DNA of 64,000 nucleotides from Candidatus Woesearchaeota archaeon (GTDB lineage Archaea; Nanobdellota; Nanobdellia; Woesearchaeales; UBA10216): NCBI GenBank assembly GCA_002688315.1, contig NZCN01000002.1:38979-102978 (forward strand), read 5' to 3'. Below the pieces are notes generated by a model. That model made no database searches. It had not been told where the DNA came from and saw only the letters and a list, made by a program, of their open reading frames with translations. This document shows, piece by piece, positions 3,950-63,435 of the stretch (within the stretch, counting starts at the first letter, position 1; each line of letters starts with the position of its first letter). The translations under genes and the position numbers were made by a program.

Positions 3950-3955
3950 CCATTT

Positions 3956-4909: not shown

Positions 4910-6203
4910 TTTGCTCACTGCTAACTTCGTTTAGAACAGCAGATGCAACATTTTCTGCAATTAACATATTGCCTTGGAATGTTGCATGTCCAAAAGAGCC
5001 TCTGCTTCTGTCTACGAACAGTTCATCGTAACTGAAGTTCTCCAAGGCTTTTCTGAAATTTTCTTCATTGCTAACAAACAATACCTTTTCATTTCCTGTG
5101 AATAACTTCTCAAATTCAGAAATTTTTTGGGTTGGATATTGCATGACCACTAATTTAATACCTTGCTTATTCAGAATTTTATAAAGCTCTTGGTAGTTAT
5201 CTCGGGTTGCCGGGCTATAATAATTCTTCCTGAGTTCAGAAATTCTTTTGAGCAATTCATCTGCTTCATTCTTATGTGCTGGGGAGCGTTCGATTACAAT
5301 GCTCAATACCTGCACAGCTTTTTCTGACCTGTTAGTCATAGTATATAAATGGCCTAGCCCTAAGTGTGTTTCGTAGTAGATTGGATCAATAGAGATTGCC
5401 TTTAGCAACGCTTCTTCTGCTTCATCATAATATCCATATCCTAGGTAACTGCTGCCTGCTTTTTGGAATATCTGGACATTATTAGGCGCTACTTTCAGCA
5501 TTTTTCCCATTGTTTCAGCCATTTTCTCAATATCACCTCGTTCTTCGTAATAAGTGACCAAATACATCCATGCTTGAATATTATCAGGCTCATCAGTTAC
5601 AACATTAATCAACTGCTTTTCAATAGCATAATCTTGTTTTTTTTGTTCAGGAGCCAGTGCACTATCTGACTTCCCGGTAAATTTGTTGTTTAAGCCCACA
5701 ATTATCAATTTGCCTAGCTTATATGTCCGAAATTTTTTGAAAATGTCGGACTTTCTTTTAACTTTAGCTCCTTGGTCATTAGTTCCCATCATTGTAATTA
5801 CCATGTGTGGATTATACCTATCCAGGTTATATTCCAAATTTTTCAAAATGTCAGTAGTTACTGTTCCAGGACGGCCTTCATTGAATACCCTATACATGCC
5901 AGGACTCTCATTGTTCAGAATCTTTTCTAATTCTGCAGGCCAAGCTCCTTGCCCGTTGTGTAAATTTGCAGTGGTAGATTCACCCAGTGCCAGAATTCTA
6001 TAGTCTTCAGATGATTCAGACAACTCATTATCAGCTTGCTGTAAAGCTAAAAAAACAAAACCGCCAATGCGTAGAAACCCTTCAATAATTACTAATGTTA
6101 AAATTATACTTCCAATCAATAGCGCTATTTTTCTTGAATCGAGTGCCATTTTCTTGTTAAAATAAAGCATATATGAATGGTGTCTCTGAACTGCTTTGGG
6201 CAA
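4893..6203 (-). CDS. Membrane-anchored SGNH-like hydrolase with C-terminal TPR repeats; likely start at ~6149 (MALDSRK...)
   Basis: TM 'IALLIGSIILTLVIIEGFL', 'ILALGESTTANL' (GDS-like block I), 'RPGTVTTD' (block II), 'GSFGHATFQGN' (His block). Central TPR-like repeats 'YYDEAEEALLKAISIDP...HLGLGHLY'. Confidence 0.5.
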   Translation of the reverse strand: MPKAVQRHHSYMLYFNKKMALDSRKIALLIGSIILTLVIIEGFLRIGGFVFLALQQADNELSESSEDYRILALGESTTANLHNGQGAWPAELEKILNNESPGMYRVFNEGRPGTVTTDILKNLEYNLDRYNPHMVITMMGTNDQGAKVKRKSDIFKKFRTYKLGKLIIVGLNNKFTGKSDSALAPEQKKQDYAIEKQLINVVTDEPDNIQAWMYLVTYYEERGDIEKMAETMGKMLKVAPNNVQIFQKAGSSYLGYGYYDEAEEALLKAISIDPIYYETHLGLGHLYTMTNRSEKAVQVLSIVIERSPAHKNEADELLKRISELRKNYYSPATRDNYQELYKILNKQGIKLVVMQYPTQKISEFEKLFTGNEKVLFVSNEENFRKALENFSYDELFVDRSRGSFGHATFQGNMLIAENVASAVLNEVSSEQINVVT

Positions 6204-6400
6204 AAATTATTAAAATACTCACCAAGATAAGCATTATCAGAATAGTAGATATCAATAACTTTTTTTTCTCTTTAATATAACTCCAAATCTCTACAATTAA
6301 CCCACGCAGAATGGCTTTGAATACAAGAATATTATATATAAAGATTTTGCACCCAATTCAATGCAAAAATATTTAATAAAACCTCTTTTAGCTTTAAGCC

Positions 6401-7828
6401 ATGAAAGCGTTTAATGTTGTATTCAAAAACACAGCTTTTTTGTTTTCTGCTGATGTTATTTCCAGGCTCCTTTCATTTTCCTTGTTCTTGGTAATTGCTC
6501 GCACGCTTGGCAAAACAGGATTAGGAGATTATTCATTCATCTTTGCTTTCACAGGCTTGTTCTGGGTTTTCAATGACCTCGGGATTTCAACTTTGTTTGT
6601 AAGGGAAGCTGCAAAAGACCTGAAAAAAGCAGATTACCTTTTTAAGAACGTTCTTTCGATAAAAATTTTGCTTGTTACACTAGTAGCTTTAGCTACTATT
6701 ATTGGTGCTAACTTTACTAGTGTTTCAGCTAATTTAGCGCTGCCTATCTACGTTGTTGCTTTGGCTGTTTTTTTCCAAAGCTTTAAGGACTTGTCTTTTT
6801 CTGTTTTCCAAGCGCATCAAAGAATGCTTTTTGTTGGGATTGCTAGGTCTCTTGAAATGCTTCTCTTGGTTGTTTTAGGAATTCTGGCTTTGCTTGCAGG
6901 CTATGGCTTGCTTGGCCTTGCATTTGCTTTTCTCATATCTTATTTTCTTATTTTTGTCTTAAGCGCTTTTGCAGTAAGAAAATTAATTACAATACGTTTT
7001 GGCTTTGACTTTGATTTCCAGAAAAAATTTGTGAAAAGCTCTATGCCTTTCTGGTTTACAGGTCTTTTTATTGCAATTTATTTCAGGATAGACACTGTTA
7101 TGATTGCTTTTTTCAGAGGCTCAGCAGAGACAGGCCTTTACAATGCTTCGTACAGGCTGCTTGACGCTCTTTATTTTGTTCCTGCTGCTGTCATAAACGC
7201 TATTTTCCCTGCTATGTCCCGGCTTTACGTGGAAAACAAAGCTGTTTTGCGCAGCCTTTACAGAAAATTCTTTTATTACCTTCTTGCAATAGCTCTTCCT
7301 ATGGGTGTAGGAGTTACATTGCTTGCTGAACGCTTGATTCTTTTCATTTATGGAAGCGAATTTTCCGGCTCTAACATTGCTTTGCAGGTGTTGATTTGGG
7401 CATTGGTTGCTGTTTTCCTCAGCTCAATAACAGGCCATCTTTTAAATGCAGTTCACAAGCAGCTTCTTTTCACTTTAACAACTGCTTTTGCAGCTGCTTT
7501 AAACATTGGCTTAAACCTTTTCTTCATTCCATATTGGGGTTACATGGGCGCAGCAGCTTCTACGCTAATAACAGAGCTGGTTGTTTTGCTAGGTTTGCTT
7601 TATTTTGCACGAAAAAACAGTTATTCATTTAACATTTTCAAATTGTTATTGAAGCCTCTTGCTGCAACTGTTGTCATGAGCTTGGTTATACTGCTAACTT
7701 TGCAATTGCATGTGCTAATAATACTTCCAGTTGCTGCAATAACTTACTTTGCTGCTTTATTCTTGATAAAAGGAATAGAAAACGAAGAAGTAATTTTGAT
7801 TAAAAGTTATCTTAAGCAGTTCATATAA
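6401..7828 (+). CDS. Wzx/MOP-superfamily oligosaccharide flippase (polysaccharide biosynthesis protein)
   Basis: 475 aa, ~12-14 TM helices. N-terminus 'NTAFLFSADVISRLLSFSLFLVIARTLGKTGLGDYS' is typical of Wzx/RfbX flippases. Confidence 0.6.
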   Translation: MKAFNVVFKNTAFLFSADVISRLLSFSLFLVIARTLGKTGLGDYSFIFAFTGLFWVFNDLGISTLFVREAAKDLKKADYLFKNVLSIKILLVTLVALATIIGANFTSVSANLALPIYVVALAVFFQSFKDLSFSVFQAHQRMLFVGIARSLEMLLLVVLGILALLAGYGLLGLAFAFLISYFLIFVLSAFAVRKLITIRFGFDFDFQKKFVKSSMPFWFTGLFIAIYFRIDTVMIAFFRGSAETGLYNASYRLLDALYFVPAAVINAIFPAMSRLYVENKAVLRSLYRKFFYYLLAIALPMGVGVTLLAERLILFIYGSEFSGSNIALQVLIWALVAVFLSSITGHLLNAVHKQLLFTLTTAFAAALNIGLNLFFIPYWGYMGAAASTLITELVVLLGLLYFARKNSYSFNIFKLLLKPLAATVVMSLVILLTLQLHVLIILPVAAITYFAALFLIKGIENEEVILIKSYLKQFI

Positions 7829-26774: not shown

Positions 26775-27824
26775 ATGTTAAGCTACGCAAGACTTGAGAA
26801 TGGATTAGATCAAGATAAAATAGATCATCTAACTAGTCGTAATATTGAAGTGCATACAGATTCTAGTAGAGGCACTACTTTTTTAGTTAAAAATCATGGA
26901 AGCCTCCCTAATGATCTAATTGTGGCTGAAAATTTGACTGATTTTAATGACGCGTTAAACGGTGTTCATAATTTATTTTCACAAACTGTCGATACAGTTG
27001 CAGAAAACGCTTTTCTTGATGTCCTTCTATTGGATGATGAAAGAATGAAAGTTGATGGCAATGAAGTAACTGGCTTTGCAGTTGTTAAGAGACCTAATGG
27101 ACGTTTTGATGTTAGAGGCGAAAAAGCGCTTTCTGAAGACAATCCATTAATTGGTGGATATGGCAGCTTATTGCGTGTTGCTGAATTAGCTTCAACATAT
27201 GCCACTCCTGTTGGTATTGATTTCGGTAACGTATACTGGATGATTGGAGAAAGCATGGAAGTAATTCTGGATAAACTTCCAAGTAGAGGTTTCTGGGAAA
27301 AAGATCCTGAAGTTGTTGCAAGAACTGGAGTACTTAATATTAGAGAGAATCCAACTGGTAGGTTCGTTGCAATAGTTTATGATGCTAATGTTGATAACAA
27401 AGATGCTCACAGAACTTTTATGAGAGAGCAAGATTATAGGTTTGTTGAAGTACCACCAGAAGTTTCAGTAGAATATGTGAGTGATAGAGAGAATCCTCGT
27501 GATTTAAGTAGACCGATTTATGTTGTTCAAGCTCACAAGCTTAAAGTTAGAGATGGAGCAAATGGAGTTCACGATTTCCGTGATTTCCAAGCTGTGTCTG
27601 ACGCTGAACCTAGTTTAAATTATATTAAAGTTGTTGCAGAAGGTTTGGCATATGCTGCTGCAGTTGAAAACGAACCAGGAAGATTGTTAAAAACTTATAA
27701 GGAACATACTGTTATGCCTGATGGTCAAACATTGCTAGCTTCTCGTCCGGAATTTGATGAAGCTCTTGGTGTTGTTCAAGAACGTTTGCAAAAAGGTATA
27801 GACGCATTAGTTTCTGCTAGATAG
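26775..27824 (+). CDS. Hypothetical acidic protein (349 aa) of unknown function
   Basis: Long ORF with no recognisable motif. Arg codon usage (cgt-rich) differs from neighbouring genes (aga/agg). Confidence 0.4.
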   Translation: MLSYARLENGLDQDKIDHLTSRNIEVHTDSSRGTTFLVKNHGSLPNDLIVAENLTDFNDALNGVHNLFSQTVDTVAENAFLDVLLLDDERMKVDGNEVTGFAVVKRPNGRFDVRGEKALSEDNPLIGGYGSLLRVAELASTYATPVGIDFGNVYWMIGESMEVILDKLPSRGFWEKDPEVVARTGVLNIRENPTGRFVAIVYDANVDNKDAHRTFMREQDYRFVEVPPEVSVEYVSDRENPRDLSRPIYVVQAHKLKVRDGANGVHDFRDFQAVSDAEPSLNYIKVVAEGLAYAAAVENEPGRLLKTYKEHTVMPDGQTLLASRPEFDEALGVVQERLQKGIDALVSAR

Positions 27825-51826: not shown

Positions 51827-52486
51827 TCATTTGCTTAGCTTCCACCATAGCATTCTCATGGCTATGTTTATTCCGTCAAACACAGTAGTTCCTTTATATT
51901 TGTCATTGTAAACAGTTTCTATTGGAAGTTGTTTGAATTTTAATTTGTGTTTTCCTGTTTTTGCAGCTATCTCAGATTCTATATTGTAGTCGCTTGATAT
52001 CAAGCCAAGCTTTTTGTAAGCATCTGTGGTCATTGCTTTGAAACCGCATTGAGTGTCTTTTATTCTTATGTTAAACAGGATGCTCAGAAGCGTATTCAGT
52101 ACAAAGTTTCCTATTTTTTTAATTAAAGGCATGTTCATGCTTTTGAGGTTTCTGTAAGTGAAAACAACATCAATGTTTTTAAGCTCATTTAGCAGTCTTG
52201 GAAGGTCTTTTGGGTTGTGCTGTCCGTCGCTGTCAATGAAAATAATTGTGTCTGCTCCATGTTTGCCTGCGTATTCTATGCCTGTTTTTAGTGCAGCTCC
52301 TTTCCCGAGGTTTATTGGATGTCTTAAAACGATTACTTTTGTTTTCTTTGCTTCTTGGTATGTTTTGTCTTTTGAGCCGTCATCTACTACAACTATGTTT
52401 TTGCTGTATTTTTTTATTTCATTCACTACTTTTGCTATGTGCTTCTCTTCGTTAAACGCAGGTATTATTACAAACGGTTTTTTCAT
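51827..52486 (-). CDS. GT2 glycosyltransferase, Dpm1-like catalytic subunit (no TM)
   Basis: 'FVIIPAFNEEKHI', 'VVDDGSKDKT' and 'FIDSDGQHNPKDL'. 10 nt downstream of aglB. Confidence 0.75.
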   Translation of the reverse strand: MKKPFVIIPAFNEEKHIAKVVNEIKKYSKNIVVVDDGSKDKTYQEAKKTKVIVLRHPINLGKGAALKTGIEYAGKHGADTIIFIDSDGQHNPKDLPRLLNELKNIDVVFTYRNLKSMNMPLIKKIGNFVLNTLLSILFNIRIKDTQCGFKAMTTDAYKKLGLISSDYNIESEIAAKTGKHKLKFKQLPIETVYNDKYKGTTVFDGINIAMRMLWWKLSK

Positions 52487-52496
52487 TTTCTTACCT

Positions 52497-55400
52497 TTAC
52501 TTTATTTCCGCAATTTTAACTTTGAAATAAAGCGTTGTGTTGAAAAATACGTGGCTTGGATCAGTATATCCTTGCTCTGGCTCAACAGTTATTATTTTTT
52601 CTTCATTTAGCTTTGTTCCTAAGATTCCTTTTTCAAATCCAGGTATTACTGAGTTTAATCCTGTAGTGAATGCCATTGAATCATGCGGGTATTCGTCAAT
52701 GCCAGTTTCCTTAGTTACTCCTTTACCTCTGAAATCATTTATTGAGCTGTCAAACACTGTTCCATCCTCTAAATATCCTATATAGTTAACCATGACTTCA
52801 TCGCCTAAACTTACTTCGGTTTTTTCTTCTACTGGTTTAAGTTCGTTCATTATGTTTTGCTGCTTTCCTTCCCAGTCAACTTGCCATACCCATATGTTGG
52901 TTCCTGTAAAACTCTGCTGTCTTGTTAAAAGTTTGAAATATTTTAAGCTGTGTCCTTGCATGTAAAACATTTTTGCAAACATTCCATCAACTAATTCAGG
53001 GCTTCCTACAATCCTGTTATAGTTTCCTCCTGATGGAATGAGCAGTATTCCTAAATTTTGAGGCACTGTATTGTTATCAAACGTTTTCTTAATAACTTCT
53101 CCTTCAGCAGTAGGGTAGCTTATTGAAATTGGGTGCTGGTTTCCTTGTGGTGTTGGATACCATGCATTGTAGTCTGCAGGGTCAACAATTAATCCGTCTC
53201 CGCATTTTATTAGTTCATCAACAATGCTGCATCCATGCACTCCTCCTGAAAAACCGTTCCATGGTCCTATCCATGCATCTGCAGCTCCGTCATTTGAAAT
53301 TCCCTGCATTTGTTCATAAATGCTGTTTGCTTCTTCCTCGCTCATTTCATGTGTTTCTTTCATGTATTGCACTGCTTCTTCTCTTGGCTTTCCTCCAACT
53401 GCTTTCCATATGTCTGCTTTGGTGTAGTCCCAGGCTCCAAAGTGTCCCCATACTCCGGATTTGCCTATCATGTCTTCAGAAGCAATTACAAATGATTCAG
53501 GCGGGTTGCAATGTGTTAATTCCAAAATTTCATTTGCTTCCTGCTCACTCAATTCTTCTTCCAAAAGAACTTGTTTTGCTCCATCTCTGTCAAGCATTAT
53601 TATCTTTTTGGTAAGCTTAACAGCATAAACATTATCTTTTCCTGATTTTTTCTCTAATTCATGAGTTCCAAAATGCGCTCCGCAGTTAAGCATTCTTAAT
53701 ATGCCTATTGCTTCTCGCTCGTCGCTTGTGCTGAAAAATCTGCCTACCCAATGCGCTTGAGGAAATGCTTGAGTTGTTCCGTCAAAAGTTACAGCTCTGT
53801 CAGCCAAGGATTTGAAATGGTGTCCAAAGTCCCACCACGAGGTTATTATTGCGTCTTCTTTTGAGTTTTCTTTTATGCTGTTTAATGAGTTAAACCATGC
53901 GTCGTTTATTAGAGGAACATCATTGTTTACTACGTTTCGCGCAGCGTTAACTACGTCGCTGTTAAAAGTTGGTCCTGGAAACATCATGAATAACATGGCG
54001 AAGACAATAGTCATTACAATCAATTTGTTAAATTTGAATTGCTTGCTTGTCCATGCTCCCACATATCCTGTGATGAGGCCAAAGACAATGCCAAATGCTA
54101 TGCTGAATGCAGGCACTAAAAGAAGAACAAATCTAATTCCTTTTGTTACAGCATACAAAGTTGCTATGAACCATATTGTAAGCACAACCGCATAAAACAA
54201 ATCTCTTACTATTTTTTCATTGTCTCTTTCCTTTTTGTAGGCTTCAAATGCCGCTCTTGCTATTATGAGGATTATTCCAAAAACTGCAATGTAAAAAAGT
54301 GAGCTTCCAATCTGGTTTATTGCTTGCTGCGCTGTTCCTTCGTTAAGTTCTGCTACTGTTCTCAGAACGTTTGGAGCTGCACTTCCAACCACAGGTGTTT
54401 TTAGCGTCCTAAAGCCTATGGATGCTACAGGAGTTAATAAGAAAGTGCTCAACCCAGATGTTATGGTCATAGTAATGCCAGTAACTGCAAAGTACGTTGC
54501 TGTAATAGTGATTATTTTTCTGGAAACACTATTCTTAAGACTGTTTAACCCGTTTTTTATCACTGTGCCTTTTCCAGTAAAGGCTTGGTAAAGCACAAAC
54601 AATCCGAAAGTTGCTGCTGCTGAAGCTAAAATAAAGTCAAATATCCACCACCAGCCTCCCCACGTAAGGCTGTACAAAGTTGTTGCAATTCCTGAAAGAG
54701 CTGCAAACACGATTTTCAGCATTATTCTTTTTGCAGAAACTGCTTCAATGAAAAGCCACAGCACAAGCACTGCAAAAAATATGACTATTGCATCTGAATC
54801 CCCATGCCCGAACTGGGTTCTGTTGATTAAAGCTGCATGCACTCCCACCATTGTTGCTGCAAAAAATGCAGCTACGTTTCCAGCTATTCTTCTTGTTAGC
54901 AAGAACACAATTAATGTGGAAAGCGCTGATATGAAAACAGGATAAAACATTAATGCTCTTTGCAGCTCAAGGCCTGGCTTGAATATTTTTGCAACGTTGT
55001 AAAACAAAACTATGGATTGTGGATAAAAAGTATCTTTAGGAGCAATCATTCTTCCTACAGGCGCAAATTGGTGGTTATCCCATTGCATGCCATCTCTGAT
55101 TTCATCTCCTACGTGCCCTTTCTCAACTATGTTTCTGGAATATCTCCACCAGTAATAAGGGTCAATGTCAGGCATGTAGTTTTTTCCAGTTTCATCTTGG
55201 TAGAATGTTTTGAATTGCTGCGAGGCAATTTCAATCTGTTGCTGCAGGTTTATTGTTTGCCCTGCAAACTGGCTTGTTTTGAAAGTGTATGTTCCTGCCC
55301 TCTTTGCTTTATTAAGTTCTTCCGCAGCAAGCTGCTGCCTGTTGCTGTCCGGCAGATTCGGATATGTTTGGCTTACAAAACTGGCAATGTCATTGTTTAT

Positions 55401-55913
55401 TGTTTGATCAATGCTGTTTCTTGCCCAATTATCTGTAAAACCTAACTCTCCTGATTGCATTCTTAAGTTGAATCCAATTCCAACGCTAACAACTATTCCT
55501 AGAATCAAAAACAAAGTCATGTGATATTTCTTCAGAAAATTCATAACAGAACTGATATCGAAGTCTTCATCACCTTTGCTTTCTTTAGCTCCGCTTTTTG
55601 CTCCCTTAAAAATTCCTTTTATGCCGGCAATTGCTTTTCCAACATCTATTTCATCTTTGCTGTCATCGCTTTTACTGGTTTCGTGTTCAATTTTTTTATC
55701 ATTTTCTTTAACATCTTCCGCTTTATGTTCGCTTTTAGTTTCATTTTTGCTATCAACAGTAGTTGCAGAAATAGGTTCTTTTCCTTCAGAACTTTTTTTT
55801 CTCTTAAACAAGCCTGTTATCTTTCCAAAGTCAATCTCAACATCTTCATCTTTTTTATCTTCAACGACTTTTATGTTATCACCATAATCTTTCTTATCCT
55901 GAGATTCAGCCAT
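52497..55913 (-). CDS. aglB: Oligosaccharyltransferase AglB/STT3 with an N-terminal K/E/D-rich extension and a C-terminal FKBP-type PPIase domain fused in frame
   Basis: 1138-aa continuous ORF. ~13 TM helices, then 'ITSWWDFGHHF' (the WWDYG-type OST catalytic motif). The last ~110 aa, 'GDEVMVNYIGYLEDGTVFDSS...GLNSVIPGFEKGILG', align with the standalone FKBP at 13877..14305. The first ~135 aa are Lys/Glu/Asp-rich. Confidence 0.8.
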   Translation of the reverse strand: MAESQDKKDYGDNIKVVEDKKDEDVEIDFGKITGLFKRKKSSEGKEPISATTVDSKNETKSEHKAEDVKENDKKIEHETSKSDDSKDEIDVGKAIAGIKGIFKGAKSGAKESKGDEDFDISSVMNFLKKYHMTLFLILGIVVSVGIGFNLRMQSGELGFTDNWARNSIDQTINNDIASFVSQTYPNLPDSNRQQLAAEELNKAKRAGTYTFKTSQFAGQTINLQQQIEIASQQFKTFYQDETGKNYMPDIDPYYWWRYSRNIVEKGHVGDEIRDGMQWDNHQFAPVGRMIAPKDTFYPQSIVLFYNVAKIFKPGLELQRALMFYPVFISALSTLIVFLLTRRIAGNVAAFFAATMVGVHAALINRTQFGHGDSDAIVIFFAVLVLWLFIEAVSAKRIMLKIVFAALSGIATTLYSLTWGGWWWIFDFILASAAATFGLFVLYQAFTGKGTVIKNGLNSLKNSVSRKIITITATYFAVTGITMTITSGLSTFLLTPVASIGFRTLKTPVVGSAAPNVLRTVAELNEGTAQQAINQIGSSLFYIAVFGIILIIARAAFEAYKKERDNEKIVRDLFYAVVLTIWFIATLYAVTKGIRFVLLLVPAFSIAFGIVFGLITGYVGAWTSKQFKFNKLIVMTIVFAMLFMMFPGPTFNSDVVNAARNVVNNDVPLINDAWFNSLNSIKENSKEDAIITSWWDFGHHFKSLADRAVTFDGTTQAFPQAHWVGRFFSTSDEREAIGILRMLNCGAHFGTHELEKKSGKDNVYAVKLTKKIIMLDRDGAKQVLLEEELSEQEANEILELTHCNPPESFVIASEDMIGKSGVWGHFGAWDYTKADIWKAVGGKPREEAVQYMKETHEMSEEEANSIYEQMQGISNDGAADAWIGPWNGFSGGVHGCSIVDELIKCGDGLIVDPADYNAWYPTPQGNQHPISISYPTAEGEVIKKTFDNNTVPQNLGILLIPSGGNYNRIVGSPELVDGMFAKMFYMQGHSLKYFKLLTRQQSFTGTNIWVWQVDWEGKQQNIMNELKPVEEKTEVSLGDEVMVNYIGYLEDGTVFDSSINDFRGKGVTKETGIDEYPHDSMAFTTGLNSVIPGFEKGILGTKLNEEKIITVEPEQGYTDPSHVFFNTTLYFKVKIAEIK

Positions 55914-55956: not shown

Positions 55957-57069
55957 TCAAAACAACAATTTTCTTGACAAAAGCAGCAGTTTTGGCTCTT
56001 GCATCAGCAGTTTGAGCGCAAACTTTCTTGGTTCGTCTCTGTCAAAGGTTTCAAGGATTTTTTTATTTTTATCGCTGCTGAAAATTCTTATCAATTTGTT
56101 ATATTCGTTATCAGAAAACTTGTTCATTATCTTCCTCATCATTAGTGAAAGCCATAAATCTCTGCCAATTTTTGCTTTCCATAGCTTTTTGTAATCTTTT
56201 CCTGTTTCAATTGCTTCAGTAACAGCAGTTGCAGCTATCAGGCTCTGATTTATGCCGCCCAGTGTTGTTGACTTAATCATTGTTGCAGCATCTCCTGCAA
56301 GCAAAATTTTTCCTTTTTGTGTTTTCGCTTTTGGATTGTGAAGCGGAATAGGCCCTGCCTGGTGCGCTATTATCTTTTTCTTGTAGTCTTTTCCCACTGC
56401 TCTTGCCATAAACTCGTCAAAATATATGCTGGCTTGGTTAGAAACAGCAATCCCTGCCCTCACTATTTTATTATTTTCAGGAACAGTCCATGCTATTCCT
56501 TTCTCTGAAGGATAGAACTCTATTATATTGTCATTTTCTAAGTTCGCAGTAACTTGCAGCCCAACATAGAATTTTCTGTTTTCAAACAAGCCAGAAGATT
56601 TTGCTACTTCGCTTCTCGGTCCGTCTGCTCCAATAAGCCAGTCGCTTTCAACTTTGATAACATTTCCCAGGTTCTTGTTTTTGATGCTTGCTGTAATTTT
56701 TCCATTGCTTTGCTCTAATCCAATAAAGCGGTGGTTAACATAATACTTTGCTCCTGCTTCTTTTGCAAGCCCTGCAATGTGCTGGTCCATTCTTGCTCTG
56801 TCAACAATAATGTCGTTCTTTAGTTTTACTTCAACAGAATTTCCATCAGGAGCTATTATGCGGGCTTTTTCTATTCTATTAATAATAATGTTTTCCGGCA
56901 GTCTTATTTGTTTTGAAAGAACATCTCCTGTTATTACGCCTGTGCAGGCCCATGGTATTCCAATCACAGGCTGTTCGTCATAAACCGCAACATCATAGCC
57001 TTTTTTCGCAAGCAAGTAAGCGCTATAATTGCCTGCAGGCCCTGCTCCTATTATAGAGACTTTAGTCAT
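55957..57069 (-). CDS. Geranylgeranyl reductase-family FAD-dependent oxidoreductase (possible dolichol/polyprenol reductase)
   Basis: 'VSIIGAGPAGNYSAYLLAKKGYDVAVYDEQ' (FAD Rossmann of GGR family), 370 aa. Immediately upstream of aglB on the same strand. Confidence 0.75.
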   Translation of the reverse strand: MTKVSIIGAGPAGNYSAYLLAKKGYDVAVYDEQPVIGIPWACTGVITGDVLSKQIRLPENIIINRIEKARIIAPDGNSVEVKLKNDIIVDRARMDQHIAGLAKEAGAKYYVNHRFIGLEQSNGKITASIKNKNLGNVIKVESDWLIGADGPRSEVAKSSGLFENRKFYVGLQVTANLENDNIIEFYPSEKGIAWTVPENNKIVRAGIAVSNQASIYFDEFMARAVGKDYKKKIIAHQAGPIPLHNPKAKTQKGKILLAGDAATMIKSTTLGGINQSLIAATAVTEAIETGKDYKKLWKAKIGRDLWLSLMMRKIMNKFSDNEYNKLIRIFSSDKNKKILETFDRDEPRKFALKLLMQEPKLLLLSRKLLF

Positions 57070-57178
57070 TGCACTTAGGAAACTTCAGCAGCTTTATATT
57101 GATTTACGTTTTCAACACAAAACTCTTAATCACCCATCAAGCATTCTTTTACCCATTATCCAATAGTAACAATAGAAA

Positions 57179-57192
57179 CTTTTATATATGGG
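57179..57192 (+). promoter_or_regulatory. TATA-box-like element 'TTTTATATATGGG' upstream of the surface-protein gene cluster
   Basis: A/T-rich 'cttttatatatggg' ~55 nt upstream of the probable ATG at 57245. Nearly identical to the element at 60677. Confidence 0.35.
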
Positions 57193-57226: not shown

Positions 57227-58696
57227 TTGCTTGGAGATTCAAAAATGCCAAATCTGACTGATATCTTAAACAGAACTGAGGATATTGTTAAAAACACAGT
57301 CACTTTTGTTCCAACTGTTGCTGATAGATTTCTTGTTCAAAATGTAGTTAAAGGCAGTCAGAATCTTCCTGCCAGCGTTAAACAGTTCAATAGAGACCAT
57401 ATATTAAGAAACTCTCTCACTGATCGTTTGAAAGATTCAAATTCCAAGACCAGAAAAGCATTAAGCACTGTTTTGGGTTATGGTGTTCCTGTTGCTGCCT
57501 TAGCTGTTGCAGACAAGGTGTTGGGCACAGACACTGCTCCTATCAGGTCAGCTATTGACGAGATTGGGAAGTGGTATGGAAACAGCTGGCAAATCGCTAC
57601 TCCAATCACTGCTGGCGGCGCTGCCATGCTTGCTGCAACTCAAAGAAACGTAAGAGGCGCTGTTTCCACTGGCGCTAATTCTGCTGGAAGCTTTGTTTAC
57701 GATAACGCTTTACTGCCTGTTGCTCATGGTTTTAGAGGTATTTATAGAAATGCACGCGATCACCCGTTTATATGGGGCTACAGTGTATTTGGAGCAGCTC
57801 TTGGTTTAACCGTTGTTGCTGGTGCTGCTTATGCATTATTAACAAAAGACGATGCTTCTGAAGAAGCTCAAGAACCTATTGTTGCTACCGCACCTGTTAC
57901 TGAGCCTATTGATGGAAGCGTAGTCTTTAATTATTTAGAACAATATTTAGATGAGCATCTTAATGCTGCTAAGGTTTTCTTTAAAGCTTACTCGCCTGTT
58001 AGTCTTACTACAGACGATTTGAGAAGCATTGCTGATGTTATCAGTCAAATGCCAACTGCTGTTCCTGCTGATAACTTTGATGCAGGACGAGTAGTAAGAT
58101 TGATAGATGGTATTCTTGCAAGTAAAGGTTATGTTGACCAAGCTAGTTTAGATGCTGCTGTTGTAGGTGAGGTTGTAAAGAGTCTTACCGCTACTCCAAC
58201 TTATACTCATGTTCCTCCTGCTACTGAGACTCCTGTTCCTCCTACTCCTGTTCCAGCTACTCCTGTTCCAGCTACTCCTGTTCCTCCTGCTACTGGAACT
58301 CCTGTTCCTCCTGCTACTGAGACTCCTGTTCCTCCAGGCATTGCAGCATTGCAAGATGCTTTCGTGTATGGATTTTCAAAACAGCTAACAAGTGATATGT
58401 ATGACAGTAATCCTAATAGATTTTTAGACGCATTTGGTGTTGTTCCAGGCGCACGTAGCCAAATACTTAACTGGTTTGATGGAGATCTTGCTAATGCAGA
58501 AGCAGTAACTATTGATGGTGTGGCTATGGTAATTAATGGTGTTGATAACATATCAAAGATTTATTTAAGTGAACAAGGAAGAGGAGCTGAATTTTCTGAT
58601 GTTGTAGCACAAACTGCTAAGAACTTCACATTAGATTTTATGAGAGACAATCCAGAAAGAATTGAGGACGTTGTTGTAATTGAAGCAGGTAATTAA
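57227..58696 (+). CDS. Membrane-anchored protein with cytoplasmic N-domain, single TM, Pro/Thr-rich repeat linker and extracytoplasmic C-domain (probable ATG start at 57245)
   Basis: No N-terminal signal peptide. Internal TM 'FIWGYSVFGAALGLTVVAGAAYALL'. Repeat linker 'PATETPVPPTPVPATPVPATPVPPATGTPVPPATETPVPP'. GC is visibly higher than in the neighbouring genes. Confidence 0.5.
   Translation: MLGDSKMPNLTDILNRTEDIVKNTVTFVPTVADRFLVQNVVKGSQNLPASVKQFNRDHILRNSLTDRLKDSNSKTRKALSTVLGYGVPVAALAVADKVLGTDTAPIRSAIDEIGKWYGNSWQIATPITAGGAAMLAATQRNVRGAVSTGANSAGSFVYDNALLPVAHGFRGIYRNARDHPFIWGYSVFGAALGLTVVAGAAYALLTKDDASEEAQEPIVATAPVTEPIDGSVVFNYLEQYLDEHLNAAKVFFKAYSPVSLTTDDLRSIADVISQMPTAVPADNFDAGRVVRLIDGILASKGYVDQASLDAAVVGEVVKSLTATPTYTHVPPATETPVPPTPVPATPVPATPVPPATGTPVPPATETPVPPGIAALQDAFVYGFSKQLTSDMYDSNPNRFLDAFGVVPGARSQILNWFDGDLANAEAVTIDGVAMVINGVDNISKIYLSEQGRGAEFSDVVAQTAKNFTLDFMRDNPERIEDVVVIEAGN
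58209..58336 (+). repeat. In-frame tandem ~15-nt DNA repeats (ACTCCTGTTCC(A/T)(G/C)CT) encoding the Pro/Thr linker
   Basis: 'gttcctcctgctactgagactcctgttcctcctactcctgttccagctactcctgttccagctactcctgttcctcctgctactgg...'. Confidence 0.7.
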
Positions 58697-58711
58697 AGGT
58701 GAGTTTTAAAA

Positions 58712-60172
58712 ATGAGATTTTTCCTAATAATTTTTCTTTCAGCATTCTTGTTGACAGTTTTATCTACTTCTGTTAGTGCTTTTTGCGGAGATAACAAATG
58801 TATTGATAGTGAGCAAAGCTGGTGTAATCTTGATTGTTCTGATCCTGATCCAGTTGCTGAGTGTGGTAATGATGAATGTGAAGTTGGAGAAGAATCTTGG
58901 TGCACGTTGGATTGTCATGTGATTGATACTCCAGAACAAAAATCATGCACTACAAATACAAACACTTATGCTCCAAGTGATGAGCCTTACGAATTTAATG
59001 CTGATAAATATGAAACAGAGTTTAGCGGAAGTGTTAAAACTGTATGCCCTGCTCTTAATAGCAAAGCTTTTTTGATTTGTAATGATGAAGGTGAATTTGT
59101 TCTTGACGATTGCACTACTCCTTTTTACAGATGCACAACTCTTGGTTTTACTGAAGTAGCTCAAGTTTGTAATGTACCAGGCACTGCAAGCAATGATGCA
59201 GGCAGTGTTGTTAGCGAATATAGTGATTTGAATATAATTCCTCTTTACTGCAGTGATGAAGGTAAATTTGACGATATTATATTAACTTGTGGTGAAGGAG
59301 AAAACATACATCGTACTTTTTGCGAAATGGAAAAATCTTCTGTGCACGAACCTATTGTGACTTCAGAGCCTGAATGCAAAGATACAAGAATCACAATTAT
59401 AGATGCTCCACCTGCTCCTGCGCCAAGTCCTGCTCCTGATCCTAGTCCAACTCCGACTCCAGATCCAACTCCTGTTCCAAACAGCAATCCAACTATAACT
59501 GATTTTAATGTTCCTCTTACCGCTGATAAAGGTAGTCAGATAACAATCTCTGTTACTGCTACTGATTCAGACGGTACTATTGATAGGATAGAAATCTTGC
59601 AGGACTCTGATATTATAAAGAGTGAATCATGCGGCAATATTGCTACGTGCGCAAAATCGTTTGTAGTTCAAGTTCCGAATGCTTTCAGCACTGCTTACAA
59701 GTTCATTGCAAGAGCTTTTGACAATTTAGGCGCTTCTGCAACTAGAGAATCAGAAGAAGGTACAACAAACCCAGAGGTAATCCCTGATACTCCAGAAACA
59801 CCTGAACCAGAGCCTGATGAAGCTTTGGATGATGTTAAAGTAAAGCACTCAGGAGATTTGTTTGTTTCAACTGTTGCTCCTGGTGAAAGTTGTGTTTCTC
59901 CTGGTGCTGAGACTTTCTTATACGCGTCATTAAAGAATAACGGAGATAAAACAGTCAAGAATGTTAAGATAATTGCAGTAGTCTACGACCTTTCTTTAAG
60001 GGCTGTTTCAAACAATTTTAATATAAGAAGAGATGAGTCTGTTTCAAGATTCCTTAACTTTGATGTTCCTGAAGATGCAGAGGAAGGTCTTTACTACATG
60101 AAAATTTCTGTAAATTCCCAGAAAGACTCTATTGTTAAGTACAGAGTTTTCGAAGTTAATAACGTATGCTAA
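58712..60172 (+). CDS. Secreted cysteine-rich surface protein: signal peptide, two CGDxxC...E...WC.LDC repeats, P/T/S linker, Ig-like domain, C-terminal CARDB-like module
   Basis: Signal 'MRFFLIIFLSAFLLTVLSTSVSA'. 'CGDNKCIDSEQSWCNLDCS' and 'CGNDECEVGEESWCTLDCH'. 'PAPAPSPAPDPSPTPTPDPTPVP'. C-terminal 'FDVPEDAEEGLYYMKISVNSQKDSIVKYRVFEV' shared with the next two ORFs. 'aggtga' ribosome-binding site 8 nt upstream. Confidence 0.55.
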   Translation: MRFFLIIFLSAFLLTVLSTSVSAFCGDNKCIDSEQSWCNLDCSDPDPVAECGNDECEVGEESWCTLDCHVIDTPEQKSCTTNTNTYAPSDEPYEFNADKYETEFSGSVKTVCPALNSKAFLICNDEGEFVLDDCTTPFYRCTTLGFTEVAQVCNVPGTASNDAGSVVSEYSDLNIIPLYCSDEGKFDDIILTCGEGENIHRTFCEMEKSSVHEPIVTSEPECKDTRITIIDAPPAPAPSPAPDPSPTPTPDPTPVPNSNPTITDFNVPLTADKGSQITISVTATDSDGTIDRIEILQDSDIIKSESCGNIATCAKSFVVQVPNAFSTAYKFIARAFDNLGASATRESEEGTTNPEVIPDTPETPEPEPDEALDDVKVKHSGDLFVSTVAPGESCVSPGAETFLYASLKNNGDKTVKNVKIIAVVYDLSLRAVSNNFNIRRDESVSRFLNFDVPEDAEEGLYYMKISVNSQKDSIVKYRVFEVNNVC

Positions 60173-60254
60173 TTTTCTTATTGTAATCATTTTAAAATAG
60201 CGACAAAATAATAAACTTTAAATAAACAGGCTGTTACTCGAATTTTCTGGTGAG

Positions 60255-60632
60255 TTGATGAAAAAACTATTTATTTTCGCTATTGCTTTAATGATGTTAT
60301 TTTCACTTTCTTCAGTTGCTTTTGCTGAAAAGCAGCACAAAAACATTCTTTTTAACAGTGTTTTTATCATGGAAGAAAAGCCATTAATCACTTCTTTATC
60401 ACTGGAAAACCGTAATAAAGATACTGATTTAAGGAATGGCAGAGTTGTTGTTTCAATCCCTGAGCTTGGCTTAAGAGCATCAGGAAGCGTTGATATTGAC
60501 GAAGATAGCAGAAAAACAAAGAGAGTAACCTTACCAATTCCTGAAGACGTTGTTGAAGGCGAGTATTATGTGCGCATTGTAGTGTCTAATAAAGACGGAA
60601 AACAAGTAAAGTACAGATTAATCACAATATAA
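60255..60632 (+). CDS. Small secreted protein (125 aa) consisting of one CARDB-like module
   Basis: Signal peptide 'MMKKLFIFAIALMMLFSLSSVAFA'. 'VSIPELGLRASG...LPIPEDVVEGEYYVRIVVSNKDGKQVKYRLITI' matches the module of the flanking genes. Confidence 0.5.
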   Translation: MMKKLFIFAIALMMLFSLSSVAFAEKQHKNILFNSVFIMEEKPLITSLSLENRNKDTDLRNGRVVVSIPELGLRASGSVDIDEDSRKTKRVTLPIPEDVVEGEYYVRIVVSNKDGKQVKYRLITI

Positions 60633-60676
60633 TGGCTAAAGATAGTTACTACTATAGTATACTAAATAATCGAAAA

Positions 60677-60687
60677 GTTTATATATG
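60677..60687 (+). promoter_or_regulatory. TATA-box-like element 'GTTTATATATGAG' upstream of 60749
   Basis: 'aagtttatatatgagtcg' ~62 nt upstream of the ATG. 'ggggtgg' ribosome-binding site ~10 nt before the ATG. Confidence 0.35.
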
Positions 60688-60748
60688 AGTCGTATCTAAC
60701 ATAAATGAACTCAAAAATTAAAATTTTAACACTTGGGGTGGATAAAAA

Positions 60749-62071
60749 ATGAAAAGATTAATGATTGTAATGTTCGGTTTGATTATGTCTGTATTGATGG
60801 CAGTTTCTGCCTCTGCAGCTTTGCTTGATCTAGATGACACTAAAACCACAGTTAAGGTTGATGGTGAATTGCTTGAAGAAGGCGCTACAAATGCAATAAC
60901 GCAGCTTGAGCGTGGTGAAGAGTTTGATTTGAATGTTAAGCTACAAGCTTCTAACCCAGTAGGTGCTGAAGGAGACGTAGTAGAAGATGTTGAAATAAAC
61001 GTATTTATTACAGGTTTTGAACACAGTAGTTCTGAAAAGATTTCTGATTCAGTAAGACCTTTTAATCTTGGAGCAAATGAAAATGTTGTTAAGACTTTGA
61101 CATTAAAGCTTCCTGACAGAGCTGATGAAGGTAAATATCAGGTTCGTGTTATAATTTCTGACAAGAACAATGAACCTATAGTAAAGAATTACAATATTAA
61201 GGTTGAGCCTGCTGACACAAACGTTGTTATTAAGAGCTTTGAATTAAGCCCAGAATCAGAAGTTCAGGCTGGTAGACCTGTTATATCTAATGTAAGAGTT
61301 AAGAATTTGGGAGACTCAGATGAAGATGATGTACAGGTTAAGGTTAGCATCCCTGAATTGGGTGTTTCTTCATTCGGAGGTTCTATTTTCATAGATGAAC
61401 TTGAAGAAGACAAATCCACTACTGCAGGTGAGTTTTTCCTTCACATTAACAAATGTACAAGACCAGGAATTTACGAAGCAGTTGCTCAGGTAACATTTGA
61501 TGATGGAGATGAGACAGTTACTGCTACAAAAGAAATTACTGTTACAAAAGGTAACTGTGATGTTGTAACAGCAGAATCTGGACAGGTTGTTACTGGACAA
61601 ATAACAATAACTCCTAGCCCAGAAACTCAAACAATAGTTGCTGGTAGTTCAGCAGTTTCATACCCTATTACAATAACAAACTCAGGTACTTCAACAAAGG
61701 CTTTCACACTTTCTGTTGACAGTGCTGACTGGGCTAACTTTAGAGTAAGCCCAAGCAATTTGGTTACAGTAAAGGCAGGTCAAACACAGACTGTGTTTGT
61801 ATTTGCTTCTGCTAATGCAGGAACAAGCGCTGGTGATAGAGTCTTTACAGTAAGTGTAAAGAACTCAGCTGGTGACGTCTTGAAAAACCTAGCATTAAAG
61901 GCTGATGTTGCTTCTTCAGGACGCGCAGGTGTTGGAGACTTATCAAGTCTTAGAAACGCACTTACAGCTGGCCTAATCTTTGTAGTAGCAATTTTAGTTG
62001 TTATCGGCTTATTGCTTGCTTTCCGCCGTGTAAAGGGCGGAGACGAAGGCGAAAGCCAAACTTACTACTAA
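60749..62071 (+). CDS. Cell-surface protein: signal peptide, >=2 CARDB-like modules, Thr/Ser/Ala-rich stalk, C-terminal TM anchor (S-layer/adhesin-like)
   Basis: 'MKRLMIVMFGLIMSVLMAVSASA'. 'LKLPDRADEGKYQVRVIISDKNNEPIVKNYNIKVEP'. 'VKNLGDSDEDDVQVKVSIPELGVSS...'. C-terminal 'LTAGLIFVVAILVVIGLLLAFRRVKGG'. Confidence 0.55.
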   Translation: MKRLMIVMFGLIMSVLMAVSASAALLDLDDTKTTVKVDGELLEEGATNAITQLERGEEFDLNVKLQASNPVGAEGDVVEDVEINVFITGFEHSSSEKISDSVRPFNLGANENVVKTLTLKLPDRADEGKYQVRVIISDKNNEPIVKNYNIKVEPADTNVVIKSFELSPESEVQAGRPVISNVRVKNLGDSDEDDVQVKVSIPELGVSSFGGSIFIDELEEDKSTTAGEFFLHINKCTRPGIYEAVAQVTFDDGDETVTATKEITVTKGNCDVVTAESGQVVTGQITITPSPETQTIVAGSSAVSYPITITNSGTSTKAFTLSVDSADWANFRVSPSNLVTVKAGQTQTVFVFASANAGTSAGDRVFTVSVKNSAGDVLKNLALKADVASSGRAGVGDLSSLRNALTAGLIFVVAILVVIGLLLAFRRVKGGDEGESQTYY

Positions 62072-62143
62072 AACTTTTTTTTGTTTAATTGTTTTTTTCT
62101 TATTTTTCGTTTTGTCATCTTATTTTTACATTGTAGAATTATA

Positions 62144-62252
62144 CGCCGGGGACGGGACTTTCACCCGTGAGATGATTTGAACCCGCGTGAGAGCGGGTAC
62201 TCTCATCTGGATCTTAAGTCCAGCGCTTTAAGCCGAACTCAGCCACCCCGGC
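62144..62252 (-). tRNA. tRNA-Leu (anticodon UAA) with an ~18-nt insertion in the T-arm (putative non-canonical intron)
   Basis: Minus strand reads GCCGGGG-TG-GCTG-AGTTCGGCTTA-AAGC-G-CTGGA-CTTAAGA-TCCAG-(long variable arm GAGAG..CTCTC)-GCGGG-TTCAAAT-[CATCTCACGGGTGAAAGT]-CCCGT-CCCCGGC-G. 7-bp acceptor stem, perfect anticodon stem, canonical GGTTCAAAT T-loop. TATA-like 'atatataaa' ~20-28 nt upstream. Confidence 0.6.
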
Positions 62253-62562
62253 AATGTTTGGAAAAAATTTATATATTGGTCCTAATACACATTAATCTGA
62301 GCGGGTGCTTTCAATTGGAGTATTCAGCCACTCCGTTTTTCTTTATTTTTCATTTTCTTGTAAAGAACTAGTGGTTTAAATACCCTATCCCTGTATGTCC
62401 AATGCTAATGGTCAAAAAGGCTTAAACCTTTATTTTTGAAGACTTCAGGGCTTGAAAGCTTATTGCGCAAATCTTCCGGATTGTCCAGTGGTTTATTCGG
62501 AAACTTTTACCATAAAGTTTAAATAAAAGAATCTATTTTAAAGTAGTAACTGGGGATGTTAC

Positions 62563-63435
62563 ATGCCGGATTTTGCTTTTATTGCTATCATTGGACTTTT
62601 GTTGCTTGTTCCTTTGGAACTCTTTTTCATTATAATTCTTGCTGCTTTAACGCGCAAGCCTGAGACGCCAAAGATTGTTGTTCCTGAGCAGAAACCGCAG
62701 GAGCGTTATGGATGGGAAGATTACCTTAAAATTCCTTCTGAAAGAAAAAAGAAGCCTTTTCCTTTGCATATCTTTTTAGGTGTTGTAATCTTAGGAGTGC
62801 TGTCAATAGCATTGATAGCTCCTGTTTTCTTTTTTGGTGTTCCTTCATTTCAGCTTAACTTAACTAAAAACGAGACTATAAGCGAAATTCAAATAAATGA
62901 GTCGATTAGTGTTTCTGAACCTGCTCCAATTGCAAATATTAGCGCTCCTAAGCTTAATATTTCTTTTCCAACACTTAACGTATCTTTTCCAGAACTTGAT
63001 ATTTCCAAATTTTTCTCTGAAAAAATTAGTCCAAATAAAAAGTATATTTACGCTATTCTTGCAGCAGTTGTAATTGTTATTCTTGCTTTGGCAGTTTTCA
63101 TATTCTTTGTCAACAGGCGCAAGTTAGCAGTGATTAAGAAAGCGAAAAAAACCGCTGATAAGCTGATGAAGAAAGCAGATAAGGAAACTCCAAAGCTTTC
63201 TGGCATTAGGCAATATATTGCTCCTCTTGTCATTTTATTCTTGCTTACAGTAATTGCTTTACTTGTTTATTTTCTCCGAGATAAGGTAAGAACAGAGCTT
63301 GCTGATTTTGTTCTTAAATATTTAACAATAACAAAGACTTTTGCGCTTAATTACAGGCTTTACATTGCTGCTGGAATAGTAATCCTGCTTATTGCAATAA
63401 TTTTATTGAGGCGTCTAAGAAAATCTAGCTCTTAA
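62563..63435 (+). CDS. Membrane protein of unknown function (290 aa; N- and C-terminal TM helices, K-rich segments)
   Basis: ORF plus hydrophobicity only. Confidence 0.35.
   Translation: MPDFAFIAIIGLLLLVPLELFFIIILAALTRKPETPKIVVPEQKPQERYGWEDYLKIPSERKKKPFPLHIFLGVVILGVLSIALIAPVFFFGVPSFQLNLTKNETISEIQINESISVSEPAPIANISAPKLNISFPTLNVSFPELDISKFFSEKISPNKKYIYAILAAVVIVILALAVFIFFVNRRKLAVIKKAKKTADKLMKKADKETPKLSGIRQYIAPLVILFLLTVIALLVYFLRDKVRTELADFVLKYLTITKTFALNYRLYIAAGIVILLIAIILLRRLRKSSS

Follow-up and report, generated by a model that had tools for sequence, protein, structure and literature searches.

What kind of locus is a cluster of four genes for putative surface proteins that lies beside N-glycosylation genes in a Candidatus Woesearchaeota archaeon, and what might its products do? 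The cluster occupies positions 57227-62071 of a stretch of 64,000 nucleotides (assembly GCA_002688315.1, contig NZCN01000002.1, forward strand), which is called the window below and to which all coordinates refer. An initial annotation, made from the letters alone, had described four open reading frames (ORFs) on the + strand, here termed g1 to g4, and all four are present in the ORF list where it had placed them. The answer that we favour is that this is a lineage-typical cell-envelope locus of a marine member of the Woesearchaeota (DPANN), ordinary in kind, with g4 as a surface-layer (S-layer)-type anchored protein and with g2 and g3 presumably assembling with it through a shared module; taken as a whole, this reading is probable in our judgement, but well short of certain. 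In the gene calls of public contigs g1 starts at ATG 57245 and g3 at ATG 60258, and a Shine-Dalgarno sequence (GGAG, 57233-57236) located 8 nt upstream of the former favours the 57245 start. The region is present as identical copies on at least six public contigs (Tara Oceans, other marine metagenomes and the metagenome-assembled genome (MAG) GCA_002505845.1). The four genes and the predicted parts of their products are as follows.

57245..58696 (ORF from 57227), + strand: g1, 483-aa type II membrane protein (ORF list, hydropathy, repeat search); cytoplasmic N-terminus, transmembrane (TM) segment at aa 181-199 (nt 57785-57841), acidic ectodomain, Pro/Thr stalk (nt 58205-58335) and conserved ~120-aa C-terminal domain (nt ~58322-58693)
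58712..60172, + strand: g2, 486-aa secreted acidic Cys-rich protein (Pfam, hydropathy, profile comparison); signal peptide, two CG[DN]xxC...WCxLDC repeats (nt 58784-58915), Cys-rich region, Pro/Ala/Thr linker, Big_7/Big_9-like immunoglobulin (Ig) domain (nt 59480-59746) and module (nt 59888-60169) ending in Cys
60258..60632 (ORF from 60255), + strand: g3, 124-aa secreted protein (relatives, module comparison, model); signal peptide and one stand-alone module
60749..62071, + strand: g4, 440-aa type I membrane protein (structure model, Pfam, homologues); signal peptide, D1 (nt 60830-61213), D2 (nt 61214-61552), D3 of the NEW3/FixG_C type (nt 61601-61918), TM helix (nt 61958-62029) and cytoplasmic tail ending QTYY (nt 62030-62068)

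The initial annotation had proposed that the ORFs of g2, g3 and g4 share a C-terminal-type module, and this was borne out by BLASTP and by profile-profile comparison of alignments of orthologues with hhalign (probabilities of 90-99%). In BLASTP, g2 aa 406-482 matched g3 aa 49-125 (E 1e-10), g3 matched two places in g4 (E ~1e-5) and g2 matched g4 (E 7e-4); g1 matched g2 solely via Pro/Thr low complexity. With hhalign, the C-terminus of g2 was related to g3 (99.0%, E 2.5e-18), D2 of g4 to the C-terminus of g2 (98.2%, E 3.5e-14) and to g3 (97.7%, E 1.4e-12), and D1 of g4 to the C-terminus of g2 (95.4%, E 1.7e-8), to D2 (91.4%, E 9e-7) and to g3 (90.4%, E 1.4e-6). Since a shared domain is thus detected by profile-profile comparison, the observation of a common module stands, but it extends to three of the four genes: there is one copy in g2 (aa ~393-486), a single copy in g3 (aa ~30-124) and two in g4 (D1, aa 28-155, and D2, aa 156-268), and g1 is without it. 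At this level of comparison D3 of g4 was unrelated to the module, and no copy beyond these four was found with a module hidden Markov model in the six-frame translation of the 64-kb window. The ~60-aa unit that had been described is a real homologous segment, but the true unit is a beta-sandwich of ~100-113 aa, of which the 60-aa motif is the better conserved C-terminal half, and the motif taken literally as a regular expression fits g3 only.

The fold of the module is a ~110-aa beta-sandwich of seven to eight strands belonging to the CARDB/NEW3/DUF4625 group, and its signature consists of an I-P-E-L-G turn and G-x-Y-Y...R-I-V-V. Matches in relatives make "CARDB-like" a fair label: when 25 isolated modules were scanned against Pfam, 17 matched NEW3 (best 4e-5), 15 CARDB (best 2.2e-6) and 8 DUF4625, and among the g4 homologues CARDB was found in 29/56 at E<=0.01 (best 3e-7) and DUF4625 in 29/56. 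The window's own copies, however, miss the gathering score of CARDB (PF07705), g4 reaching 17.5 bits vs 22.7 (E 0.005) and g2 and g3 giving no CARDB match. The module is therefore a divergent CARDB-type E-set beta-sandwich, a relative rather than a clean member of CARDB. Cell-surface proteins of archaea and bacteria with CARDB, NPCBM_assoc-NEW3 (PF10633) or DUF4625 (PF15418) domains (COG1361/COG1470-type) resemble the module in fold and g4 in layout (signal peptide, tandem sandwiches, C-terminal TM helix); what sets the module apart from them, besides the position of the window copies below the CARDB cut-off, is its own I-P-E-L-G signature and its confinement, in these data, to a single lineage-specific gene set. 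The model of g3 (predicted local distance difference test score, pLDDT, 67.5) gave generic Ig/FN3 matches in Foldseek. A few weak pilin matches were also returned, but the possibility that g3 is a donor-strand or pilin-like subunit was ruled out, because its N-terminal segment aligns with strand A of g4 D2, so that g3 is a complete domain.

Which of the products could form a layer? An AlphaFold2 model of g4, computed from 56 homologues, had a mean pLDDT of 87.6 and consisted of a signal helix, sandwiches at residues 28-153, 159-266 and 285-388, a TM helix at 399-430 and a short disordered tail; D1 and D2 each show an E-set/Ig-like fold of ~100 residues on the predicted extracytoplasmic side. 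As had been claimed, g2, g3 and g4 carry N-terminal hydrophobic segments ending AxA (ASA in g4), and the hydropathy of g4 indicates a C-terminal TM segment at aa 407-425 followed by RR-x-K, so that export and membrane attachment of g4 are predicted by both heuristic and model. D3 passes the gathering score of NPCBM_assoc/NEW3 (PF10633; aa 304-371, 38.4 bits vs 24.4, E 1.5e-9) and of FixG_C (31.6 vs 25.6), and these families were found in 54 and 53 of the 56 homologues, respectively. A Foldseek search of the PDB with g4 returned generic multi-Ig proteins (HYDIN/ASH-type ciliary proteins, alpha-2-macroglobulin MG domains and the bacterial S-layer protein SbsB). The family comprises 91 clusters of ~430 aa, from 100% to 23% identity, all from MAGs and limited to Woesearchaeota/Nanoarchaeota records; three clusters bear the submitter name "putative S-layer protein", and some homologues are called "uncharacterized membrane protein" by JGI (the Joint Genome Institute).

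Conservation within g4 falls from the tail through the TM helix and D2/D3 to the distal D1, as expected of an anchored protein with an exposed tip. The 13-aa cytoplasmic tail (nt 62030-62068) is the best conserved segment, with a mean identity of 55% vs 35% for D1 over the 56 homologues, and in the orthologues of the surveyed loci (numbered with an L; here L007-L034) it ends in an invariant (Q/E)TYY-COOH. We scanned the window and 29 related loci, copies of the window or of each other being left out, for reading frames ending in YY; there were 26 among 536 long frames, and all 26 were g4 orthologues, which rules out that the YY tail is a general C-terminal sorting signal. The degree of conservation of the tail and its invariant end argue for a conserved cytoplasmic binding partner.

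The genes around g4 behave differently. In g2 the two Cys repeats that the initial annotation had reported are present, as C-G-[DN]-x-x-C-x6-W-C-x-L-D-C at aa 25-42 and 51-68, and repeats of the CGDxxC type also occur in the g2-like genes of L019 and L021. The Big_7/Big_9-like domain of g2 is sub-threshold in Pfam, and against NCBIfam g2 gave a weak match to the PACE-CTERM "putative S-layer protein" model (16.9 bits vs a cut-off of 110). Literature searches on DPANN cysteine-rich surface proteins, and on DPANN together with S-layer and CARDB, returned nothing relevant. The orthologues of g2 keep the module and the Ig domain (one to four copies) at 42-52% identity, but their N-terminal repeats are unrelated: the L007 protein has acidic repeats of DDDFYPGDDG, and the L008 protein has CEDDDYALAHPGEC sixteen times over. 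The L008 protein (nt 3838-6792 of that locus, 984 aa) contains 50 Cys and 16 tandem CEDDDYALAHPGECSVG copies, besides which a second Cys repeat occurs four times and the Ig domain four times in tandem; it illustrates an extreme repeat expansion at the g2 position of the locus. Besides its own cluster, g3 has 11 close relatives of 123-134 aa, all unnamed or "hypothetical", and it was not found in lineages with a g4 less than 46% identical to that of the window. Isoelectric points are acidic (4.1-4.4) for the ectodomains of g1, g2 and g4 and slightly basic (~8.3) for mature g3.

The description of g1 as type-II-like with a Pro/Thr repeat stalk also held: hydropathy gives a single TM segment at aa 181-199, which implies an N-in/C-out orientation, and the stalk is encoded by a DNA tandem repeat (58205-58335). 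There was no Pfam match for g1. A word-indexed search with g1 returned itself alone, and an exhaustive HMMER search gave 20 matches (9 at <=1e-10), which cover mainly aa ~315-483; most of these relatives have the ~120-aa C-terminal domain after a Pro/Thr linker, and three have the N-terminal region. A match of the g1-family alignment to PDB 8zvk (E 4e-20) was rejected as low complexity rather than homology, since the aligned part is the Pro/Thr linker (profile positions 193-277). In the NCBI MAG contig DAWD01000033 (L003) a run of N stands exactly at the Pro/Thr repeat (window 58252-58265), and owing to this assembly break g1 is annotated there as a 99-aa fragment only. In sum, g1 is fast-evolving, and the locus as a whole combines a stable core (g4) with rapidly evolving accessory genes.

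Is the cluster native to its lineage? The initial annotation had placed it beside an oligosaccharyltransferase operon and a tRNA, and indeed an AglB-FKBP fusion, a geranylgeranyl reductase (GGR)-family gene and a tRNA-Leu flank it.

51827..52486, - strand: family 2 glycosyltransferase (GT2), polyprenyl-phosphate sugar synthase / AglJ-like, Dol-P-sugar-type (Pfam Glycos_transf_2, 5.6e-28)
52497..55913, - strand: AglB (STT3) oligosaccharyltransferase with a C-terminal FKBP peptidyl-prolyl isomerase (PPIase) domain (Pfam STT3 6.1e-43, FKBP_C 5e-14)
55957..57069, - strand: GGR-family FAD oxidoreductase (NCBIfam TIGR02032, 169.6 bits vs a cut-off of 158.8)
62145..62253, - strand: tRNA-Leu(UAA) (ARAGORN 62161-62253; Rfam tRNA model 62145-62252, 41.7 bits, with a 19-nt insert)

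Related loci were surveyed by tblastn and comprised those of g4 homologues at 63, 56, 46, 37, 35 and 28% identity and 23 loci among GTDB species representatives (17-sequence g4 alignment). An AglB and/or GGR-family gene was located within 7 kb of g4 in 17/28 distinct loci, several of the other loci being cut by contig ends. Two arrangements were observed, divergent upstream, as in the window, or downstream on the same strand (L029 and L030); in L027 a GGR gene and a short AglB fragment lie downstream of g4. The GGR-family gene, the product of which may be a polyprenol/dolichol reductase, adjoins AglB in most related loci, and the GT2 gene, whose best NCBIfam matches are PpgS and AglJ, both under the cut-off, is syntenic in L007, L009, L012, L018, L022, L029 and L030 and belongs to a conserved N-glycosylation unit. 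The order g1-like, g2-like, g3, g4 and g5 (g5 being the gene that follows g4) was found in L007, L008, L013-L017, L019, L021 and L023, and the g4 homologues come from many habitats, among them groundwater, marine waters and sediment. Because the same gene order recurs in relatives down to 30-37% g4 identity, the cluster appears to be ancestral to the lineage and to have been inherited vertically with the neighbouring N-glycosylation genes, and not imported.

The opposite had been hinted at in the initial annotation, in which a higher guanine-plus-cytosine (GC) content of the cluster was taken as the sign of a distinct history. A marginal rise does exist in g1 (0.41), g2 (0.38) and g4 (0.39) over the mean of the 47 long ORFs of the window (0.37, standard deviation (sd) 0.019), but it sits wholly in codon positions 1 and 2, and the GC content of the third position (GC3) of these genes is lower, not higher (0.22-0.24 vs 0.322, sd 0.042, i.e., 2-2.5 sd lower). 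When GC was predicted from the amino acids and the background codon usage of the window, values of 0.41-0.44 were obtained, above those observed. Since composition alone predicts more GC than there is, the shift is an amino-acid effect, an outcome that the initial annotation had itself named as a refutation, and together with the conserved synteny this removes the hint. A horizontally acquired island is hence scarcely credible, even though the coding GC of g1 exceeds the gene mean (0.41 vs 0.37), a tRNA gene adjoins the cluster, and the synonymous sites of g1, g2 and g4 differ from those of their neighbours in being T-rich and G-poor (z -2.7 to -3.6). The odd third-position usage is common to the unrelated ORF 26775-27824 and could be explained equally well by expression-linked codon bias; the ORF list holds no integrase, repeat or mobile-element signatures; and the same gene order by the same AglB/GGR genes is found in distant relatives. 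ORF 26775-27824 (+ strand, 349 aa) has in its own right the most extreme codon-position composition of the window (GC1 0.57, GC3 0.186), and is T3-rich and G3-poor like g1, g2 and g4; it has no Pfam match, and no TM or signal segment is evident in its sequence.

Given the adjoining AglB, are the surface proteins its substrates? The initial annotation had named the products prime candidates. We counted N-glycosylation sequons (N-x-S/T) and compared the counts with those expected from shuffles. No sequon was found in g2 (4.7 expected), g3 (0.8) or g4 (3.8), i.e., 0 vs 9.3 for the three together, and the same three genes of L008 also had 0, vs 7.1 expected. In the g4 family (91 proteins) 78 sequons were observed vs 226 expected, and in the g3 family 0 vs 4.6, whereas the ratio of observed to expected was 0.88 for the other 43 ORFs of the window; g1 has two sequons in its ectodomain (aa 435 and 460). 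With such a depletion g2, g3 and g4 are poor candidates for AglB substrates, and the claim does not hold for them. That they are N-glycoproteins and the principal substrates of the adjacent AglB is accordingly very improbable, and for the canonical sequon already contradicted, although g4 is linked to AglB, GGR and GT2 genes in 17/28 loci, with two arrangements, N-glycosylation is usual for archaeal S-layer proteins, and 18/56 g4 homologues carry a single sequon at one D1 loop position (that of window residue 110), where the g4 of the window has none. It is unusual that surface proteins avoid N-glycosylation sites despite an adjoining glycosylating enzyme; possibilities include selection against glycans at lattice interfaces.

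A better candidate lies just outside the cluster:

62563..63435, + strand: g5, 290-aa basic protein with five predicted TM segments (hydropathy, orthologues)

This protein belongs to no Pfam or NCBIfam family. It has 6 sequons vs 0.8 expected, all of them in the loop between TM2 and TM3 (aa 99-139, nt 62857-62985), and its orthologues in L007 and L008 have 7 each, with ~1 expected; orthologues of g5 follow g4 in L007, L008, L013, L015 and L016. The extracellular loop of g5 is thus the likely AglB substrate of the locus. The promoter and leader of g5 (TTTAAATAAAAGAATCTATTTTAAAGTAGTRACTG) are almost identical in the window and L007, while the proteins are 40% identical.

The signals that would drive transcription of these genes were read from the sequence and from orthologue alignments; BRE denotes the transcription factor B recognition element.

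57174..57188, + strand: g1 promoter, a purine-rich BRE-like stretch and the TATA box TTTATATA (57181-57188), 57-64 nt upstream of ATG 57245
60187..60224, + strand: g3 promoter (orthologue comparison), a conserved upstream element TCATTTTAAAATAG (60187-60200) and the TATA-like TTTAAATA (60217-60224)
60648..60685, + strand: g4 promoter block (alignment of the window, L007, L008, L009 and L012), ACTACT-N5-TAT-nCTAAATAA-n-CGAAAAG (BRE), then TTTATATA (TATA, 60678-60685)
62075..62127, + strand: oligo-T runs (8, 7, 5, 4 and 5 T) just after the g4 stop codon, read from the sequence

The g4 block, which is followed by a Shine-Dalgarno sequence (GGGGTGG, 60735-60741), is conserved in the window, L007, L008, L009 and partly L012, down to orthologues of 37% identity. 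Just 5′ of its BRE/TATA lies ACTACT-N5-TAT-nCTAAATAA (window 60648-60677), and this upstream block may be a transcription-factor site or an extended promoter. Both g3 and g5 have conserved promoter regions of their own, the g3 upstream element being present also in L007 and L008, and g1 and g2 are probably co-transcribed, as judged from the gap of 15 nt between them, which contains AGGTGA. The oligo-T runs likely represent an archaeal transcription termination signal. As for the paired near-identical TATA elements of the initial annotation, TTTATATATGRG does occur exactly twice in the window, at 57181 and 60678, vs 0.01 expected, but the two are canonical BRE/TATA elements. The orthologous promoters keep the BRE and TATA and not the G(G/A)G that follows, so that the identity of the two 12-mers is without special meaning and a special shared regulatory element was ruled out.

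How might these parts work together? The suggestion of an S-layer or adhesion role was a reasonable one, as the products look like secreted or membrane-anchored surface proteins. In the reading that we favour, g4 would be made, presumably at a high level, from its own strong conserved BRE/TATA promoter, exported via a Sec-type signal peptide and kept anchored by its C-terminal TM helix, so as to show three acidic beta-sandwich domains outward, two modules of the CARDB/NEW3 type and one NEW3/FixG_C domain. The available proxies for its expression level are a consensus BRE/TATA promoter that is kept among lineages, a strong Shine-Dalgarno sequence and the atypical codon usage at third positions. 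As the major S-layer-type, or S-layer-anchoring, protein of the cell g4 would then be the leading candidate, presumably able to form a lattice. The module with its conserved I-P-E-L-G turn may be a shared assembly or attachment interface, through which g2 and the basic, module-only g3 would attach to the g4 layer. There the N-terminal repeats of g2, hypervariable and either Cys-rich or acidic, could form a rapidly diversifying outer part that would lend itself to adhesion or host contact; g1, probably co-transcribed with g2, would be a type II membrane protein raised on its Pro/Thr stalk, and g5 would offer, in the extracellular loop of a five-TM protein, the likely AglB substrate of the locus. 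The assignment of g4 as an S-layer protein or its anchor draws on its architecture, on the conservation of gene and promoter, on submitter annotations and on analogy with archaeal and proposed DPANN S-layer proteins. According to a preprint on DPANN (bioRxiv 10.1101/2023.10.27.564410), such candidates are multi-Ig proteins, some with a C-terminal TM segment, and as of 2023 no S-layer or envelope protein of any DPANN archaeon had been experimentally determined. In a metatranscriptome, the most highly expressed genes of Woesearchaeota include those for S-layer proteins (PMC11606122).

Several points weigh against this assignment. The lack of sequons in g4 contrasts with nearly all characterised archaeal S-layer proteins and with the Nanobdella candidates, its ectodomain of ~40 kDa is at the small end for an S-layer protein, and paralogues of g4 exist in some genomes, as in the MAG from which both L026 and L036 derive. 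When PDB sequences were searched with the profiles of two alignments, no significant relative of g4 was found, experimentally established S-layer proteins included; S-layer proteins are notoriously non-homologous between lineages, so that a homology test weighs little. The names "putative S-layer protein" are submitter annotations and not tests, signal peptides and TM helices were called by a Kyte-Doolittle hydropathy heuristic alone, and the co-assembly of g2 and g3 with g4 is conjectured from the shared IPELG-containing domain alone. It is also possible, though on the unlikely side, that the products serve an episymbiotic DPANN cell chiefly in adhesion to a host or partner rather than as a structural S-layer, with g4 as one anchored adhesin and the module as a generic spacer. 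The hypervariable, repeat-rich N-terminal regions of g2 in relatives, a g1 that evolves so fast that the word-based search returns itself alone, and the distal D1 as the least conserved folded part of g4 all suit such a role, and it is routine to propose Ig-like surface proteins as interaction factors of DPANN (bioRxiv 10.1101/2023.10.27.564410). Yet a well conserved g4 of fixed ~430-aa architecture, with a conserved promoter and in lineages of many habitats, fits a housekeeping envelope role better, and the adhesion and S-layer roles are compatible, as a g4 layer may carry g2 as an adhesin. Doubtful, finally, is the more specific proposal that g4, g3 and g2 are the S-layer system of Woesearchaeales, in which a small acidic TM-anchored three-Ig lattice, free of N-glycosylation sites despite an obligatory AglB linkage, would bear accessory proteins mounted via the lineage-specific module and be coupled via its (Q/E)TYY-COOH tail to a cytoplasmic partner, with g5 as the glycosylated component.

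Among known systems, the two-component S-layer of the Sulfolobales, SlaA/SlaB, is likewise encoded by adjacent genes, and g4 resembles SlaB in its signal peptide, consecutive beta-sandwiches and C-terminal TM anchor; g2, which is upstream, larger, more variable, secreted and multi-domain, could play an outer, SlaA-like role. There is, however, no sequence similarity, g2 (486 aa) is much smaller than SlaA, and g3 has no counterpart. In place of the coiled-coil stalk of SlaB, the g4 model has a ~10-residue low-confidence linker (aa 391-399) between D3 and the TM helix, and both Sla proteins are heavily N-glycosylated, whereas g2 and g4 are without sequons. Closer in taxonomy are the DPANN candidates of the same superphylum (Nanoarchaeum NEQ300, Micrarchaeum Micr_00292, Nanobdella MJ1_0160 and the TM-anchored MJ1_0707), which like g4 are multi-Ig secreted proteins, some with a C-terminal TM segment. 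By their descriptions they differ in having 900-1000 aa or 4-5 Ig folds, vs three folds and no sequon in g4, and 13-17 N-glycosylation sites are predicted in the Nanobdella/DPANN candidates (bioRxiv 10.1101/2023.10.27.564410).

Two features of the flanking genes may be added. The PPIase partner of AglB varies, being FKBP_C in the window (52497-55913), L007 and L008 and a parvulin-type Rotamase in L012 (2244-5303), and there is none in L009 (925-4230); this variety among Woesearchaeota looks like a recurrent oligosaccharyltransferase-PPIase fusion. The T-arm of the tRNA-Leu(UAA) has an apparent insertion of ~19 nt, which is possibly a non-canonical intron, and the Rfam tRNA model misses the gene at default filters and finds it under permissive ones. 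Elsewhere in the window glycan-synthesis genes are abundant (GT2, two carbamoyltransferases, an epimerase/dehydratase and a PMT_2-family protein).

To our knowledge, no culture of Woesearchaeota has been reported. In kind, the locus is what is expected of an archaeal surface-protein locus, with two modest surprises, sequon avoidance and the TYY tail. The avoidance of sequons in proteins that are genetically tied to an oligosaccharyltransferase is a testable oddity. The g4 family represents a well-defined and widely conserved envelope candidate, with a confident structural model, a genomic address by AglB and the TYY tail as a hallmark, and the locus would help to annotate DPANN genomes and to pick targets for metaproteomics or electron cryotomography.

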